Origin: an uncultured Christensenellaceae bacterium
Lineage (GTDB): Bacteria > Bacillota > Clostridia > Christensenellales > UBA3700
Assembly (NCBI GenBank): GCA_944380275.1
Contig: CALWHB010000002.1
Coordinates: 19,576-83,575, forward strand
DNA length: 64,000 nt
Reading direction: 5' to 3'
Within the stretch, counting starts at the first letter, position 1; every line of letters starts with the position of its first letter. This document shows, piece by piece, positions 3,273-26,267 of the stretch. Made by a program: the position numbers and the translations under genes. The notes under the pieces were generated by a model. The model was not told the origin of the DNA and did not search any database. It saw only the letters and a list, made by a program, of their open reading frames with translations.

Positions 3273-4118
3273 ATGACAGACGCTATAATAACTTTTTTTG
3301 AAAACACTTTAAAAAACGACATCCTGACGATAATATTTATCGCCGCGGTGCCTATTATCGAATTGCGCGGCAGTATTCCCGTCGGGGTAGCGATGGGTAT
3401 GCCTCTCTGGGAGGCATTTATATGGGCATGGGTCGGTTCTTCGCTCGTATGCCCGGTTCTGCTTTTGATACTTCGTCCCGTACTTGACTGGATGAAAAAG
3501 ACAAAGTGGTTCCGTTCTCTCGCTCTCGCGGTTGAGGGAACTTTCCGTTCAAGGGCAGAAAAAGTGGTAAAAGAATCTGAGAGAAACGACCCGAAAAAAA
3601 TGAAAAAGAAGATGCTGGGCGTTTACGCTTTCGTTGCGGTTCCTCTTCCTCTGACGGGAGTATGGACGGGCAGCGCGATAGCGGCGTTTCTCGACATGCC
3701 TTTCTGGAAGGCACTCGTAAGCGTTTTGCTGGGAAATCTGACTGCCGGTGCGATAGTAACCTTGCTTACTTATTTCTTCAAAGACTACGTCGACATAATT
3801 CTTACCGTATTTCTGATAATAGTGCTTGTCGTACTCGTTTTTTATATCGTCATGGTGGCAATCAAAATAGCAAAAAACAAGAAAGCCGAAAAAGAGGCGG
3901 CATTGACCGGTGATTCCGTTGCCGCTGATAAAAAGCATGATGAGGAAAATGTTGCAGACTGCGCGGATTGCGGAGTTGAAGACAAGGGATATTCAGAGAA
4001 AAAAGACGACGTTTCGCTCAATGCGCGTTTTGAAAAGGATTGCGACGAACCCCCGAAACTCGTGGCAAAAAACACTTCTGGAAAAAATGGCGGAGAGTCT
4101 GACGGGAAGTCTGATTAA
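3273..4118 (+). CDS. COG2426 / small multidrug export family membrane protein with an acidic C-terminal tail
   Basis: PIIELRGSIP and FVAVPLPLTGVWTG motifs; upstream TTGACT-17-TATAAT (3230-3258). Confidence 0.85.
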   Translation: MTDAIITFFENTLKNDILTIIFIAAVPIIELRGSIPVGVAMGMPLWEAFIWAWVGSSLVCPVLLLILRPVLDWMKKTKWFRSLALAVEGTFRSRAEKVVKESERNDPKKMKKKMLGVYAFVAVPLPLTGVWTGSAIAAFLDMPFWKALVSVLLGNLTAGAIVTLLTYFFKDYVDIILTVFLIIVLVVLVFYIVMVAIKIAKNKKAEKEAALTGDSVAADKKHDEENVADCADCGVEDKGYSEKKDDVSLNARFEKDCDEPPKLVAKNTSGKNGGESDGKSD

Positions 4119-4194
4119 ACCGTTTGAAAAAGAATTTCAGGCATAAAGACAGCCTCTTAGCTGCTTTAAAAAATAATCGGCTTGATTGCCGGTG

Positions 4195-4224
4195 AAAAAA
4201 AACGGAGCGCGCTCCGTTTTTTTT
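4195..4224. terminator. Bidirectional intrinsic terminator
   Basis: A8-CGGAGC-GC-GCTCCG-T8 between convergent genes. Confidence 0.8.
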
Positions 4225-4349
4225 GTGTTTAAATTTATTGTCTGCAAAATATGTCTTGTCTCTGAGATTCAGATAAAGCAATCGTCAATCCGCGTCCGTA
4301 CGTTTGAATTGTTCAAAGCTCCGTTTGACAGGCGGTTGCAAACCTGAAA

Positions 4350-20332: not shown

Positions 20333-20746
20333 ATGGTAAATCTGATTTGCGGAAGCAAAGGCTCCGGCAAGACCAGCCGAATTATCGAAAAGGCGAACGC
20401 GGACGTAAAAACCGCGAAAGGCGACTGCATCTTCATCAACGATACCGACAGGTATATGTACGACGTCGACCGCGGCGTAAGGCTGATTGACGTAACGGAA
20501 TATCCCGTTGCAGGAGAAGAGGCATTGCTCGCGTTCATATGCGGTCTTGCTGCAAGCAGAAACGATTTGACAAACCTTTACATAGACGGTGCGTCGAGAA
20601 TCGCAGGATGCGGACCGGAAAAGATGAAGAAATTTTACGAAGAGCTGGGCAAACTTGCGGATAAACTCTCTTTGTCCGTAACGGTTACAGTCAGCGCGAC
20701 CGCAGAAGAATTACCTGATTTCTTATTGAAATACAAAATTATCTGA
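20333..20746 (+). CDS. Conserved small P-loop-like protein of Clostridia, function unknown
   Basis: N-terminal GSKGSGKT, LYIDG; SD GGAGG; 9 bp upstream of thrC. Confidence 0.8.
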   Translation: MVNLICGSKGSGKTSRIIEKANADVKTAKGDCIFINDTDRYMYDVDRGVRLIDVTEYPVAGEEALLAFICGLAASRNDLTNLYIDGASRIAGCGPEKMKKFYEELGKLADKLSLSVTVTVSATAEELPDFLLKYKII

Positions 20747-22315: not shown

Positions 22316-22352
22316 AAAAATACGACCCCTTTAAAACGGGGTCGTATTTTTT
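22316..22352. terminator. Bidirectional intrinsic terminator (thrC / fprA)
   Basis: AAAAATACGACCCC-loop-GGGGTCGTATTTTTT. Confidence 0.88.
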
Positions 22353-22414: not shown

Positions 22415-23614
22415 TTACTTGAGCGCGCCGGCAAGCTGTCTGCCGTATTCTTTTGCGGATTCTATGTCAGCCGCCGTGGGTACGAAACAGACTTTGAGCC
22501 CTTCGCCGACCACAGCCATTTTAAGTCCTGAAACTCTCGCTATAACATTGGGGACAGCCTCGCCGCTCCAGCCGTAAGAACCGAAGACAGCGACCGGCTT
22601 TTTGCGGCTGTTTATCGCGTCCACGCCGGCGAGCAAATCCCATACGGGCGGAACTGCGTCAGAATTGAGGGTGGGAGAGCCTATCGCGCACGCGTCGCAA
22701 GAATTGATTTTTGCGCGCATTTCAGACATATCGTTCTCGATGAGGTTGTAAGTTTCGCAAGCCGCGTCGGGGATTACTTCCTTTACGCCTTCGGCGATAG
22801 CCTCAGCGAGTTTTGCCGTGCAGCCGTATGCAGAGCAGTAGAACACTGGGATTGTCTTTACCGCGTTCTTGACAGGCTTGCTCCAGTTTTTGTAGCAGTC
22901 GAGTACGTACGGCAGCAGTCCGTTCTTTGTCAGTACGGGACCGTGGCTGGGGCATACGGTTTCAAACGGATATTTTGCAATCTTTGCGGTGCCGGCGATT
23001 ACGAAGGGCTTGAAAGGACCGAAAATGGCGTCGTAATAACCCTTGAAAGCCTCTTTGTATCCGTCGACGTTTTCCACATCCTTGTCAAAGACCTTCTCGC
23101 TGCTGTAATGAGAACCGAATACGTCGCAGCTGAAAAGCACCTTTTCTTCAGCGCAGTACGTGAACATACTGTCAGGCCAGTGCAGCAGCGGTGCGACGGT
23201 AAACGTAAGCGTTACGCCGCCAAGGTCGAGAACTTCGCCGTCCTTTACGGGGCGGGATTTAAAGGGTTCGTTTACGATGTTTTTCAGGTAGTTGAGCGCG
23301 ACCGCCGTTGCGAGAACGGTAGCGTCTGGACACAGCCTGAGCAGGTCTGCGAGTGCGCCTGAGTGGTCGGGCTCTGTATGATTCAGCACGATGTATTTTA
23401 TTTTTGCAGGGTCGGCAACTTCGCGTATGTTCGCCTCGTATTCGCCCTTGAAATCAGCGTGCGATGCCTCAATCAGAGCAACGTCGTCGCCTTTTACGAT
23501 ATAAGAGTTATAGCTGGTACCGTATTTTGTTTCCATCACTATATCGAAAACTCTGAGGTCGGGATTCTGCACTCCGACGCTGTAAATTTTGTCAGTAATT
23601 CTGTTTGCTGCCAT
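22415..23614 (-). CDS. fprA: Class A flavodiiron protein (O2/NO reductase)
   Basis: Diiron ligands NHTEPDH, HWPD, CDVFG, PSHG; flavodoxin domain SAYGCT, GSPT, FGSYGWSGE; start MAANR at 23614 with SD GGAGGAG. Confidence 0.93.
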   Translation of the reverse strand: MAANRITDKIYSVGVQNPDLRVFDIVMETKYGTSYNSYIVKGDDVALIEASHADFKGEYEANIREVADPAKIKYIVLNHTEPDHSGALADLLRLCPDATVLATAVALNYLKNIVNEPFKSRPVKDGEVLDLGGVTLTFTVAPLLHWPDSMFTYCAEEKVLFSCDVFGSHYSSEKVFDKDVENVDGYKEAFKGYYDAIFGPFKPFVIAGTAKIAKYPFETVCPSHGPVLTKNGLLPYVLDCYKNWSKPVKNAVKTIPVFYCSAYGCTAKLAEAIAEGVKEVIPDAACETYNLIENDMSEMRAKINSCDACAIGSPTLNSDAVPPVWDLLAGVDAINSRKKPVAVFGSYGWSGEAVPNVIARVSGLKMAVVGEGLKVCFVPTAADIESAKEYGRQLAGALK

Positions 23615-23654
23615 ATTGAAATCTCCTCCGTAAATTGCAGAATATTGTAGATTG

Positions 23655-23921
23655 TTAAATTCCGTGTTTAACTCTGTCCCTTTCTTCGGCGCGTTTAGCA
23701 TTGTTGAAACGGTCGAGGGTACCAACAAGATAACCCGTTATGCGGCGTATCCTTTCAAAAGGTACGTTTTCAAAAGTATATTTGAGGTCGACGTAGTCGC
23801 CGTCTACAGTAACGTCCATCTGAGAAATGTTTTTATCGGGGTATTTCTTTTTACCGTAATCGATATAAGCGTCGATTTCTTTCTGTTCAAGCTGACCGCC
23901 GTTTACGTTTACTTTTATCAT
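23655..23921 (-). CDS. Stand-alone NrdD-type glycyl-radical domain protein (88 aa)
   Basis: SD GGAGG 8 nt before ATG 23921; C-terminus VPFERIRRITGYLVGTLDRFNNAKRAEERDRVKHGI matches the class III RNR C-terminus; no Cys, no catalytic barrel. Confidence 0.85.
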   Translation of the reverse strand: MIKVNVNGGQLEQKEIDAYIDYGKKKYPDKNISQMDVTVDGDYVDLKYTFENVPFERIRRITGYLVGTLDRFNNAKRAEERDRVKHGI

Positions 23922-23975
23922 AATTTTATCCTCCGGCAAATATTTTTAAAATTCGCTTTACTTTTTATCGCATAT

Positions 23976-23984
23976 AATATAACA
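23976..23984 (-). promoter_or_regulatory. Extended -10 element of the mini-nrdD/fprA promoter
   Basis: Minus strand TGtTATATT with no good -35, consistent with activator dependence. Confidence 0.5.
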
Positions 23985-24002
23985 TATTTTCAGAAGAAAT
24001 AT

Positions 24003-24020
24003 ATGTTGCAAATGCAACAT
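24003..24020. promoter_or_regulatory. Perfect palindrome, likely operator of the adjacent Crp/Fnr regulator
   Basis: ATGTTGCA-AA-TGCAACAT between divergent genes. Confidence 0.75.
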
Positions 24021-24033
24021 TTTGAGGAAAATT

Positions 24034-24681
24034 ATGGATATTTTTAAAATAAATCTTTTTGACGGGATAAGCGGCGAGGACGTAGAGAGGATGATAGTAT
24101 GTTTCGGCGCGGTTTTCAGAAGTTTCAAGACAGGTGCGACTATATACGACTATCCGGGCAGCGGCGACGACGTTGGAGTAATGCTTGAAGGTAAGGCGTC
24201 GATGATACGTACGGACGAAGACGGAGAGGTCGCGGTTATGGAACTTTATTCAGAGGGCGACATATTCGGAGAGGTGCTTGCTTTTGCCAACGAAACGGGC
24301 GACAGCGTCAAAGTTATTGCAGAGAGCGATTGCAACGTTATGTTCATCAAGTATTCGCAGATAACAAAACGCTGTGAAAGAGCATGCGAGCATCACAGCA
24401 GGCTTGTAGGGAATATGTTCGGGCTGATAGCGAGAAAGACGCTTTTGCTGAGCAGAAGAATAGAGATATTGTCAAAAAAGACCACAAGAGAAAAGCTGAT
24501 GTATTATTTTCAGACGCTTTCAAAGGATTACGGCGCGGAGTTTGAACTGCCTATGTCGGTAACACGACTTGCTGAATACGTATGCGCTGACAGGAGCGCG
24601 ATGACGAGAGAACTGTCGCGTATGCAGTCGGACGGACTCATTGAGATAAACAAGAGAAGAGTAAAGCTCAAAAAGGCATAA
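24034..24681 (+). CDS. Crp/Fnr family transcriptional regulator
   Basis: cNMP-binding fold (GDIFGE), CERACEHH motif, C-terminal HTH LAEYVCADRSAMTRELSRM; SD GAGGA, ATG 24034. Confidence 0.92.
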   Translation: MDIFKINLFDGISGEDVERMIVCFGAVFRSFKTGATIYDYPGSGDDVGVMLEGKASMIRTDEDGEVAVMELYSEGDIFGEVLAFANETGDSVKVIAESDCNVMFIKYSQITKRCERACEHHSRLVGNMFGLIARKTLLLSRRIEILSKKTTREKLMYYFQTLSKDYGAEFELPMSVTRLAEYVCADRSAMTRELSRMQSDGLIEINKRRVKLKKA

Positions 24682-24825
24682 AAATTTTTGCAGCGCATTA
24701 ACTTTACAGGTTGATTGCGATAGACCGTAAGGGACAAACGTGATTTTGAGAAGACAGTTTTATTTTTTCAATTTGAAGACATGTTTTTGAAAATACGGCA
24801 AAATCTGAGGAATATCGAATAATTT

Positions 24826-24864
24826 AATCAAAAAAGACGCGCCCTGACACGCGTCTTTTTGATT
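24826..24864. terminator. Bidirectional intrinsic terminator
   Basis: AATCAAAAAAGACGCG-loop-CGCGTCTTTTTGATT. Confidence 0.8.
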
Positions 24865-24941
24865 TGATATTTGATTGCCTGAATTTTATCTGACTTTCCG
24901 CTCTTTATGCCTTTATGCGGTAAAATTTTGAAAACGGATTG

Positions 24942-26267
24942 TCAGACTGCTGAAAAGCTGTCTTTTTCAGCCGTAACGCTCACGCTCATTGCCTCGCCGT
25001 TTCTGGTGAAGTTTATAGTGATTGTATCTCCCTCTTTTGCCTTGAGCAGGTATTCGCGCGCTCTGAAAGAAGTATCCACCTTGACGCCTTCTTCGCCGTT
25101 TATTGAAACTGATACCAGAACGTCGCCTTGTTGCAACAAGCCTTCGACAGCCGCTCCCGTGCTTATTTCGCCTACCGCATACGTGTATACGGTACGTATA
25201 ATGCCGTCGGAATCAATGTAAGTCGTCATATCTGAGAGTTCCATAGTGATGCCAAGGCTGAAACGCTGACCGTTGTTTTCGATTATATTGTCAGCAACCG
25301 CTACCGCAAGACTTGCAGGGATTGCGTAACAGATGTTGTCGTCAGTCGTATCTGCTGATTTTGCGTCGGAAATGCCCATAAGTTCGCCGTATTCGTTGAA
25401 CATACCGCCGCCGGAGTTACCGCTGTTGAGAGCGGCGTCCGTGCGGTAAACGCGTACGTTGGACGAGGAGTCGGTAGTGATGTATTCAGACTCGACAGAA
25501 ACTATGCCAGACGTTACCGAGAAGGTGTAAAGCGTGGGGCAGCCTACCGCAAAAGTCGCCTGACCTGCGACGGGGTCTGAAGTATTTACTTTTACGGTTG
25601 CGACCGTGTCTTCGAGGAAGAAATCCGAAGAGGCTTTTATTACCGCAATATCGTTGCTTTCCGACGCGCCCACGACGGTTGCGCTAATCATATCGTCTTC
25701 CATAACCCTGTTGTAAAGATAAATTTTTATATTGCTGCAATATTCGCTCTTGTAGGTGTCGTATATCACGTGATAATTTGTTATTATATATGCGGTATTT
25801 CCGCTGAGCTTATAAATTACGCCTGAACCCGACCACGCATGCTGACTCTGACCGAAGGGGGTAGTGTAAGGACTTGTGCATATAATACCGACCGCGCTTT
25901 TCAGGGCTTGCTGTACGGTTGAGGTTATGCTTGGGGTAACGTCAAGACCGAGCGACGCGTAAAAGTCTGCCTCTGTAGCTCCCGGATTGCTTTCGAGATA
26001 TTTAGCAATAAGTTCGTCGAGAGAGAAAGCGTCTTTTCCGTCAGTACCGTTAGTTCCGTCGACGCCGTCTTTGCCGTTGGTGCCGTCTGAACCTTTAAGG
26101 CTTTCGAGCCACTCGCTTTCCGTACCTTCAAAGCCGTTTCTGACAGCGATTTCATAAGCCGACTCGCCCTTTGTTTCAGAACCTATGCAAGAGCATAGCA
26201 AAACCGCGGTAAACACGGTTATAACAATTGCCACAATCGCGGTGAGGATGATTTTTTTTGATTTCAT
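24942..26267 (-). CDS. HtrA/DegP-like S1C serine protease lipoprotein with a collagen-like linker and PDZ-like C-terminus
   Basis: Lipobox LCS-C; GSGVI, TNYHV, DIAV, DAALNSGNSGG triad motifs; GxDGxNG repeats. Confidence 0.88.
   Translation of the reverse strand: MKSKKIILTAIVAIVITVFTAVLLCSCIGSETKGESAYEIAVRNGFEGTESEWLESLKGSDGTNGKDGVDGTNGTDGKDAFSLDELIAKYLESNPGATEADFYASLGLDVTPSITSTVQQALKSAVGIICTSPYTTPFGQSQHAWSGSGVIYKLSGNTAYIITNYHVIYDTYKSEYCSNIKIYLYNRVMEDDMISATVVGASESNDIAVIKASSDFFLEDTVATVKVNTSDPVAGQATFAVGCPTLYTFSVTSGIVSVESEYITTDSSSNVRVYRTDAALNSGNSGGGMFNEYGELMGISDAKSADTTDDNICYAIPASLAVAVADNIIENNGQRFSLGITMELSDMTTYIDSDGIIRTVYTYAVGEISTGAAVEGLLQQGDVLVSVSINGEEGVKVDTSFRAREYLLKAKEGDTITINFTRNGEAMSVSVTAEKDSFSAV

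Follow-up and report, generated by a model that had tools for sequence, protein, structure and literature searches.

Why should a clostridial bacterium keep, beside a flavodiiron protein and beneath a regulator of its own, a separate gene for the glycyl-radical tail of an enzyme that it also encodes whole? The question is raised by positions 22,415 to 24,681 of a 64,000-nt stretch of DNA (the window) from an uncultured Christensenellaceae bacterium (assembly GCA_944380275.1, contig CALWHB010000002.1, positions 19,576 to 83,575). Three genes lie there: a Crp/Fnr-family regulator (crp), a small gene related to NrdD, a ribonucleotide reductase (RNR) of class III, and here called mini-nrdD, and fprA for a flavodiiron protein. 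To our knowledge all glycyl radical enzymes are cut by O2 at the radical glycine. An initial annotation of the window had read the three genes as a module in which one regulator induces both the removal of O2 and the repair of NrdD. The boldest answer considered here, to which we would give slightly less than an even chance, is that in mini-NrdD a class III RNR would have, for the first time, a glycyl-radical subunit that stands alone. It would serve as an obligate partner of naturally tail-less NrdD in phage-like elements and as a regulated spare part for O2-cleaved NrdD in gut Clostridia, there under a branch of the Crp/Fnr family that would be new and redox-sensing (with a C-x3-C-x2-H sensor and a GTTGC-N4-GCAAC operator) and would couple repair to the scavenging of O2 or peroxide.

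An apparently old and selected copy of the NrdD tail

Among Pfam families mini-NrdD matches NRDD alone (E 2.3e-07), and only over profile positions 533-562 of 562. Residues 53-88 constitute the NrdD glycyl-radical tail (RRITGYLVG...), and residues 1-52 are without an NrdD counterpart. The host's own enzyme, NrdD-1, is a 784-aa protein with ATP-cone and NRDD domains and is followed directly by a 171-aa NrdG. Its residues 744-779 agree with the mini-NrdD tail at 35 of 36 amino acids, whereas the DNA encoding the two tails is identical at only 82 of 108 nt, with 21 synonymous codon differences against a single non-synonymous one. Because protein and DNA diverge so unequally, the tail of mini-NrdD is best described, by codon comparison, as an old copy kept by purifying selection. 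A recent duplicate or an assembly artefact is ruled out by the same figures.

Across 55 mini-NrdD sequences R60, T62 and Y64 never vary and G63 hardly does, and the RxxGY glycyl-radical motif is present; in the N-terminal part E15 and Y19 are nearly invariant as well. With 88 aa that reach only the end of the NRDD profile, the protein has no ten-stranded NrdD barrel. The zinc ribbon, which in NrdD-1 reads CGYN...CCPKC, is missing too, since residues 1-52 hold no cysteine, nor is there one anywhere else in the protein. No match was obtained to Pfam Gly_radical, the pyruvate formate-lyase domain, at E values up to 0.01, and mini-NrdD stands outside that family, though its mode of action may be the same. 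In an AlphaFold2 model (predicted local distance difference test, pLDDT, 76.9) residues 1-52 form a beta-alpha-beta-beta arrangement. A Foldseek search of the PDB with the model brought no match with an E value of 0.001 or below (best 0.1) and left this N-terminal domain unassigned.

The parent enzyme is generally retained. An intact NrdD accompanies mini-NrdD in 14 of 15 related genomes, the remaining one being 84% complete, and in all five genomes of a Ruminococcus-type clade, described below for its rubrerythrin, and its neighbours. The family as a whole is large: clustering at 90% identity gives at least 8000 clusters, and clustering at 50% leaves 2133 representatives. Its members are entered in the databases as hypothetical, or anaerobic ribonucleoside-triphosphate reductase or NrdD fragment. 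One genome (G045, to which locus L021 belongs) encodes three mini-like tails (C21:32729-32824, C64:4163-4258 and C54:2578-2673) in open reading frames (ORFs) of 90-102 aa, plus an intact NrdD. A second NrdD of the host (L002:1141-3516, on contig C16 of G000) is 791 aa long, has a C-terminal glutaredoxin-like domain and a differing glycine tail (SRITGYYRPV), and lies downstream of a 228-aa radical S-adenosylmethionine (SAM) activase; mini-NrdD resembles NrdD-1 only.

Natural cassettes in which NrdD lacks its tail

Loci outside the genus were taken from the best 80 of 589 genome matches and the best 80 of 585 metagenome matches to mini-NrdD (160 loci, neighbours within 2.5 kb), and 80 contigs of the IMG/VR viral collection were added. 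A large nrdD stands directly upstream of the mini gene in 15 of these loci, three among the 160 and 12 among the IMG/VR contigs. Fourteen of the 15 large ORFs end just past the zinc ribbon and have no RxTGY motif, several of them with ...ERVRRIK, one or two residues short of the position of the radical glycine. Because the large gene has no tail, mini-NrdD must bear the sole glycyl radical in these cassettes. Twelve of the 15 loci, among them 11 of the 14 tail-less ones, have an nrdG gene downstream at a distance of up to 2.5 kb. The tail-less cassettes are L085, L152, L223, L224, L228-L230, L233, L237-L239, L271, L274 and L280, of which 12 are on IMG/VR viral contigs, with the mini gene of the viral loci at about 4001-4267; L005 alone has an intact nrdD with mini-nrdD and nrdG. 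Taken together, the cassettes provide strong comparative evidence that mini-NrdD can work in trans with an NrdD that has no tail, the very ability that a spare part would require.

Among pattern matches on viral contigs in IMG/VR, 466 of 592 encode a relative of mini-NrdD. The majority of the best 80 span almost all of the 88 aa and have no nrdD adjacent, and some of the contigs are possibly cellular.

Intact NrdD is cleaved by O2 at the radical glycine, G681 in the E. coli enzyme. Complex formation was modelled with NrdD-1 residues 101-753, corresponding to the O2-cleaved form without its ATP-cone (50 alignment rows), and mini-NrdD (55 rows). The interface score ipSAE was 0.52 (0.52, 0.51 and 0.59 in the individual runs) against 0.00 for the best of three controls; the runs share at least 67% of their contacts, and partner pLDDT is at least 70. 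Of 80 solved complexes 58 attain the ipSAE mark used, as do 2 of 110 mismatched pairs; those attaining it with a score no higher than 0.60 are only 7 of the 80 solved complexes, together with both of the mismatches. Since the structure of intact NrdD has already been solved, the score may also reflect likeness to it. The prediction lends weak support to a complex of NrdD-1 and mini-NrdD.

The cassettes also bear on the idea that mini-NrdD is no repair part and instead occupies the NrdG activase, or takes up the radical, as a decoy or buffer, so as to keep NrdD-1 radical-free and safe from cleavage under O2 or nitric oxide (NO), which we regard as very improbable. A decoy would need the tail that the activase recognises, and mini-NrdD has it at 35 of 36 residues; it is predicted to be co-expressed with an O2/NO scavenger, and NO inactivates both the radical of class III RNR and its activase, according to the accessible part of a preprint (bioRxiv 10.1101/2025.02.23.639758). 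The pairing of tail-less NrdD with mini-NrdD in 14 of 15 cassettes, however, requires working delivery of the radical to the barrel, and a conserved N-terminal domain with E15 and Y19 nearly invariant suggests docking.

A dedicated Crp/Fnr regulator and its operator

The regulator matches Pfam cNMP_binding (1e-12, residues 33-119) and HTH_Crp_2 (5.9e-09, residues 158-217, in the numbering of the 219-aa ORF), which by domain content places it in the Crp/Fnr transcription factor family, with a beta-roll and a C-terminal Crp-type helix-turn-helix. It has no close solved relative (best E 7.6e-08), and the NCBIfam Fnr model, whose cut-off is 228 bits, gives it 17.3. All 18 orthologues, which are 26-79% identical, share C23, C115, C119 and H122 without exception; the last three form a C-x3-C-x2-H motif where the dimer helix begins.

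The gap between the two divergent genes contains a perfect palindrome of 16 bp, TGTTGCA-N2-TGCAACA. In the window alone such a palindrome is not significant, as 23 of 100 shuffles yield at least one match, and its role was judged by comparison across 175 mini-nrdD loci (the 160 public loci and 15 relatives including the window), scored within 230 bp upstream; nine were too short for scoring. When up to two mismatches are allowed, 24 of the 25 loci that have a divergent crp show the operator upstream of mini-nrdD, as against none of the 141 that lack a divergent crp. In the exception, L128, the regulator is only 26% identical and a variant palindrome, GTTGTAAAAACAAC, stands before the mini gene (L128:430-600). 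Binding of the palindrome by the dedicated regulator is thus well supported by the comparison.

The host site, TGTTGCAAATGCAACA, is the sole perfect copy in the 1.78-Mb genome, which contains nine further sites with two mismatches. The core TTGCA-N2-TGCAA occurs at nine genome sites, three of them intergenic, and the two intergenic sites other than the operator (C5:37783 and C9:11769) are over 300 bp from any gene start by ORF calling. A wider regulon was rejected on these grounds: there is no second perfect palindrome, and the other intergenic core sites are not near gene starts.

The palindrome centre is 29.5-30.5 nt ahead of the -10 hexamer in all 24 loci (30.5 nt in the window), and the extended -10, TATGaTAcAAT or TATGtTATAtT, keeps the same distance to the palindrome within 1 nt. 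Given this spacing, the operator would be centred at about -41.5 to -42.5 from the predicted transcript start, the geometry of a class II activator. Its other end is 3 nt from the ribosome-binding site of crp itself, which makes autoregulation of the regulator likely. Both the distribution of the operator and its distance from the extended -10 speak for the initial proposal that one regulator controls the mini-nrdD and fprA pair.

For the signal of the regulator two readings were weighed. In one, which we consider rather unlikely, it is an anoxia sensor like E. coli FNR and the operon is a standing supply for anaerobic or micro-oxic growth rather than a response to damage. Its layout is FNR-like in having one N-terminal cysteine and further cysteines at the beginning of the dimer helix, and its operator is at a predicted class II distance. 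In E. coli, FNR activates both yfiD and nrdDG, whose promoters are FNR-dependent, and yfiD activity peaks under microaerobic conditions (PMC10208419, available text). At L096, furthermore, crp, operator and mini-nrdD are combined with nrdG, and an activase is useful only in anoxia. Against this, FNR proper has three N-terminal cysteines and one before the dimer helix, a pattern that the regulator does not show, C23 being the sole N-terminal cysteine conserved in the 18 orthologues. A dedicated regulator with a single site would also be hard to explain, because in a strict anaerobe a switch for anoxia alone would nearly always be on; and clostridial flavodiiron and reverse rubrerythrin genes are induced by O2, as parts of the PerR and sigma-B regulons. 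On balance, switching triggered by oxidants is marginally favoured over switching triggered by anoxia.

Probable co-transcription of mini-nrdD with fprA

The two genes are co-oriented and 40 bp apart, and crp is divergent from both. A pattern scan detected no terminator-like site in the spacer (23615-23654), and its folding is unremarkable (z 0.22; 110 of 200 shuffles equally stable). Four metatranscriptome runs from two studies, of animal faeces or gut according to their records, include contigs that match parts of the operon. The junction is bridged by two RNA-library contigs, X1 record 4 (23429-23699) and X2 record 5 (23528-23741), with at least 45 letters on each side, from two libraries of one study. 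Positions 23953-24900 are covered by none of the four libraries, which is not readable as silence of crp. The hairpin-free spacer and the bridging contigs fit co-transcription, though they do not prove it, and to this extent the single transcript proposed initially looks right.

A class A flavodiiron protein

FprA matches Pfam ODP (1.1e-20) and Flavodoxin_1 (1.4e-11, spanning residues 257-389 of 399) and has no third domain. Because it consists of these two domains and nothing else, it is classified, by family and domain criteria, as a two-domain class A flavodiiron protein of the FprA/ROO type. The closest solved structure is 1ycf, Moorella FprA (E 2.5e-64, residues 6-397), with which the motifs HTEPDH, LHWPD, CDVFGSH and PSHG line up; these presumably hold the diiron ligands (H-x-E-x-D-H, then H, D and H).

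An NO-response module was also considered, in which an HcpR-like regulator senses NO, FprA is an NO reductase and mini-NrdD replaces radical domains quenched by NO. The nearest NCBIfam models for FprA are indeed NO-reductase flavorubredoxins, 1ycf itself is named nitric oxide reductase, and destruction of the RNR glycyl radical by NO is described in the portion consulted of the preprint cited above (bioRxiv 10.1101/2025.02.23.639758). The regulator also resembles HcpR2 and other local Crp/Fnr regulators of anaerobes in being divergent from its target and in having a palindrome of 5-N4-5 format and a small local regulon. The NorV-type flavorubredoxin models, however, score 296 and 249 bits, far under their cut-offs of 635 and 711. 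The inner operator bases differ (GTTGC-N4-GCAAC against the HcpR2 consensus GTAAC-N4-GTTAC, as given in the accessible text of PMC1274295), on which ground identity of the regulator with HcpR2 was rejected. Its conserved Cys/His set and its targets differ from those of HcpR2 as well: neither hcp nor frdX is at the locus, the rest of the genome not having been searched for hcp. The enzyme that takes the place of FprA in the sister clade is a reverse rubrerythrin, by family knowledge a reductase of peroxide or O2 and not an NO enzyme. We judge a module devoted to NO to be decidedly improbable.

Recurrence of the locus

Twelve of 14 relatives within the genus have mini-nrdD, and all 12 have a divergent crp upstream and fprA downstream. 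The gap between mini-nrdD and fprA is 29-88 bp, and FprA is 63-89% and the regulator 53-79% identical. Among the 160 loci outside the genus, flanks of at least 800 bp were present downstream in 136 and upstream in 135. A crp homologue is near the mini gene in 13 of the 160, in 12 of them upstream and divergent. A reverse rubrerythrin follows 35-184 bp downstream on the same strand in ten, nine of which have crp; nrdG is downstream in six, and a rubrerythrin is upstream in one (L078, 43 bp away and on the same strand).

The mini genes linked to fprA and those linked to reverse rubrerythrin form sister groups (SH-aLRT branch support 89, in a weakly resolved tree of 225 distinct sequences). The sister clade, from Ruminococcus, has the same regulator, operator and mini-NrdD with reverse rubrerythrin in the place of fprA. 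The conserved core is therefore regulator, operator and mini-NrdD, and the downstream slot varies between two unrelated diiron reductases of O2 or peroxide. Such a substitution upholds the link to oxidative-stress enzymes drawn in the initial annotation, and a tie between the mini-nrdD locus and oxidative stress is supported by gene neighbourhood, on few independent events.

Other neighbours were noted. The SAM synthetase gene metK adjoins mini-nrdD in 11 of the 160 loci (L031, L035, L041, L049, L053, L100, L104, L107-L109 and L129), all entered as downstream in the tally; ten of them have it on the same strand, 281-563 bp downstream, and L129 has it upstream. Activases consume SAM, and the adjacency may be plain synteny within one clade. 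At L076 a divergent regulator of the Rrf2 family is beside the mini gene.

A proposed mechanism and its weaknesses

We give an even chance to the following mechanism, in which a dedicated sensor of redox state, O2, reactive oxygen species or NO activates mini-nrdD and fprA, FprA scavenges, and mini-NrdD activated by NrdG replaces the cleaved tail of NrdD-1. C23, C115, C119 and H122 would provide the regulator with its sensor, be it a thiol switch or a site for a metal or an Fe-S cluster, and from the operator about 42 bp upstream the regulator would activate a two-gene mini-nrdD-fprA transcript. FprA, supplied with electrons by a donor of the rubredoxin type, would reduce either O2 to water or NO to N2O. 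Once anoxia is restored, the NrdG activase would place a radical on Gly63 of mini-NrdD. With its N-terminal beta-alpha-beta-beta domain as the docking part, mini-NrdD would then substitute for the O2-cleaved tail of NrdD-1, and synthesis of deoxyribonucleoside triphosphates (dNTPs) could return without a new 784-aa enzyme. The logic would be that by which FNR of E. coli acts on yfiD/grcA with pyruvate formate-lyase, transferred to a class III RNR.

Several observations weigh against this mechanism. The model of mini-NrdD is only moderately confident, and its N-terminal domain resembles no solved fold. Comparison of mini-NrdD tails with the NrdD tails of their own and of other genomes revealed no specific co-evolution, because the tail is conserved throughout the genus. 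An FNR-like regulator would be active in anoxia. The RNA-library contigs may stem from DNA and prove neither a single transcript nor transcription at all. The htrA-like neighbour on the far side of crp is also kept, in 11 of the 12 genus relatives, so that the 12 cases amount to one inherited arrangement. Outside the genus fprA adjoins mini-nrdD in none of the 160 loci (in none of the 80 genome loci by tblastn), the single weak match being 2.3 kb off on the opposite strand, and most mini genes have unrelated neighbours (231 clusters among 290 neighbours). Finally, since the mini genes linked to fprA and to reverse rubrerythrin are sister groups, the stress link amounts to about two or three independent events.

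The scarcity of fprA raises the possibility that its adjacency is an accident of this genus, the true target being mini-nrdD alone as an ordinary alternative radical subunit with no tie to oxygen damage. Besides the absence of fprA from the 160 loci, this would account for L013 and L128, where crp, operator and mini-nrdD occur without a scavenger, for L096 with its nrdG, and for the numerous mini genes that stand alone. It is nevertheless improbable: sister clades fill the downstream slot with two unrelated diiron reductases of O2 or peroxide, and chance adjacency should be rare where a 1.78-Mb genome has only three rubrerythrin-like genes. In addition, L021 retains mini-nrdD with reverse rubrerythrin in the absence of crp, and L078 pairs mini-nrdD with a rubrerythrin.

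The initial interpretation thus survives in part. The shared regulator, the appearance of co-transcription and the link to stress enzymes stand, and the neighbourhood survey did return crp and reverse rubrerythrin. The expected recurrence of fprA beside mini-NrdD was not borne out. Nor can gene context serve, as had been supposed, as the main independent support for a spare part, because fprA adjoins none of the 160 mini genes surveyed outside the genus; the cassettes of tail-less nrdD with mini-nrdD and the selection on the tail are better support.

Features of the locus and neighbouring genes

The gene layout given initially (a co-oriented pair, a divergent Crp/Fnr gene and no terminator between the pair) is confirmed by ORFs, Pfam, pattern scan and folding, and all coordinates were correct to within a few bases (Table 1). 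The full ORFs extend over 22415-23728 (minus strand, flavodiiron protein), 23655-23939 (minus strand, mini-NrdD) and 24022-24681 (plus strand, Crp/Fnr); the starts in the table are the likely ones. Both bounding terminators fold well beyond their shuffles. The hairpin at the fprA end has -22.4 kcal/mol on the minus strand (z -6.74) and -24.1 kcal/mol on the plus strand (z -5.78), matched by none of 200 shuffles; it was overlooked by the pattern scan and recovered by folding. The hairpin behind crp has -17.8 kcal/mol (z -6.26).

Table 1. Positions in the window of genes, terminators and regulatory sites at the mini-nrdD locus
Feature	Position	Strand	Basis or remarks
fprA, class A flavodiiron protein	22415-23614	-	399 aa; ATG at 23614 behind GGAGGAG; Pfam ODP and Flavodoxin_1
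mini-nrdD, stand-alone glycyl-radical piece	23655-23921	-	88 aa; ATG at 23921 behind GGAGGA; Pfam NRDD end only
Crp/Fnr-family regulator	24034-24681	+	215 aa; ATG at 24034 behind GAGGA; Pfam cNMP_binding and HTH_Crp_2
40-bp spacer with the fprA ribosome-binding site GGAGGAG	23615-23654	-	Sequence, terminator scan, folding
Predicted bidirectional intrinsic terminator of the mini-nrdD-fprA operon (minus) and thrC (plus)	22316-22352		Folding against shuffles
Predicted terminator hairpin where crp and the htrA-like gene converge	24831-24860		Pattern scan and folding
Putative extended -10, TGtTATATT	23976-23984	-	Transcript start predicted near 23969
16-bp palindromic operator TGTTGCAAATGCAACA	24004-24019		Comparison across mini-NrdD loci

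An HtrA-like trypsin/PDZ protease is encoded at 24942-26267 (minus strand), convergent with the regulator and in the same position in 11 of 12 genus relatives; its gene is outside the mini-nrdD-fprA operon. On the other side, a 137-aa ORF at 20333-20746 (plus strand), which matches no Pfam family and contains the P-loop-like motif GSKGSGKT, sits between thrC and an HMGL-like gene of the citramalate/isopropylmalate synthase type.

Relation to known systems and significance

The closest parallels to mini-NrdD are two autonomous cofactors of pyruvate formate-lyase, YfiD/GrcA from E. coli and Y06I from phage T4, likewise small proteins in which a C-terminal copy of the cell's glycyl-radical domain is joined to an extra N-terminal part. 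The gene yfiD too is under a regulator of the Crp/Fnr family, FNR, and mini-NrdD, like these proteins, occurs on phage-like contigs. The parent of mini-NrdD, in contrast to theirs, is a class III RNR and not pyruvate formate-lyase, and mini-NrdD has no Gly_radical match. Its regulator, unlike that of yfiD, is a dedicated local one with a single genomic site, and its N-terminal part is predicted to be folded, whereas that of YfiD is described as disordered in the available part of a review (PMC13450708).

A C-terminal module supplied by an adjacent gene is also known from the split class II RNR NrdJa/NrdJb of Pseudomonas aeruginosa and of a Thermus phage (PMC9669993 and PMC3653736, available text). 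Those enzymes are of class II and have no glycyl radical, whereas mini-NrdD as the separate part carries the radical and the large subunit in the window's genome is intact. The accessible portions of the same two accounts of split RNRs deal with introns and inteins and with the split enzyme of class II, and not with a layout of nrdD with mini-nrdD (PMC3653736, PMC9669993).

As for the neighbouring scavengers, the mini-nrdD loci resemble other clostridia in using them and differ in where they stand. Flavodiiron proteins and reverse rubrerythrins are the O2 and peroxide scavengers of clostridia and are under PerR or sigma-B; here, by contrast, the scavenger is beside a part of RNR and under a Crp/Fnr regulator.

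A literature search, in which subscription journals and supplements were thinly covered, returned no mini-NrdD, no class III RNR split so that its radical subunit is separate, and no report of this regulator. What may be new is the extension of the spare-part principle to another enzyme, with a new local regulator, though a prior report is possible. Spare parts have been validated only for pyruvate formate-lyase, and other glycyl radical enzymes were left open, as far as the available text of a 2021 paper (PMC8683613) and a 2026 review (PMC13450708) goes.

The locus makes this openly posed question testable, with an 88-aa protein, its parent enzyme, an activase and a regulator with a 16-bp site. 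The natural split forms are a ready positive control, and the regulator, the operator and mini-NrdD are all present, with a reverse rubrerythrin, in the cultured Ruminococcus flavefaciens strains FD-1 and ATCC 19208 (L007 and L014). Many strict anaerobes have class III RNR as their sole route to DNA precursors, and for this reason a repair of NrdD would matter for the survival of gut anaerobes when oxygen is briefly present.

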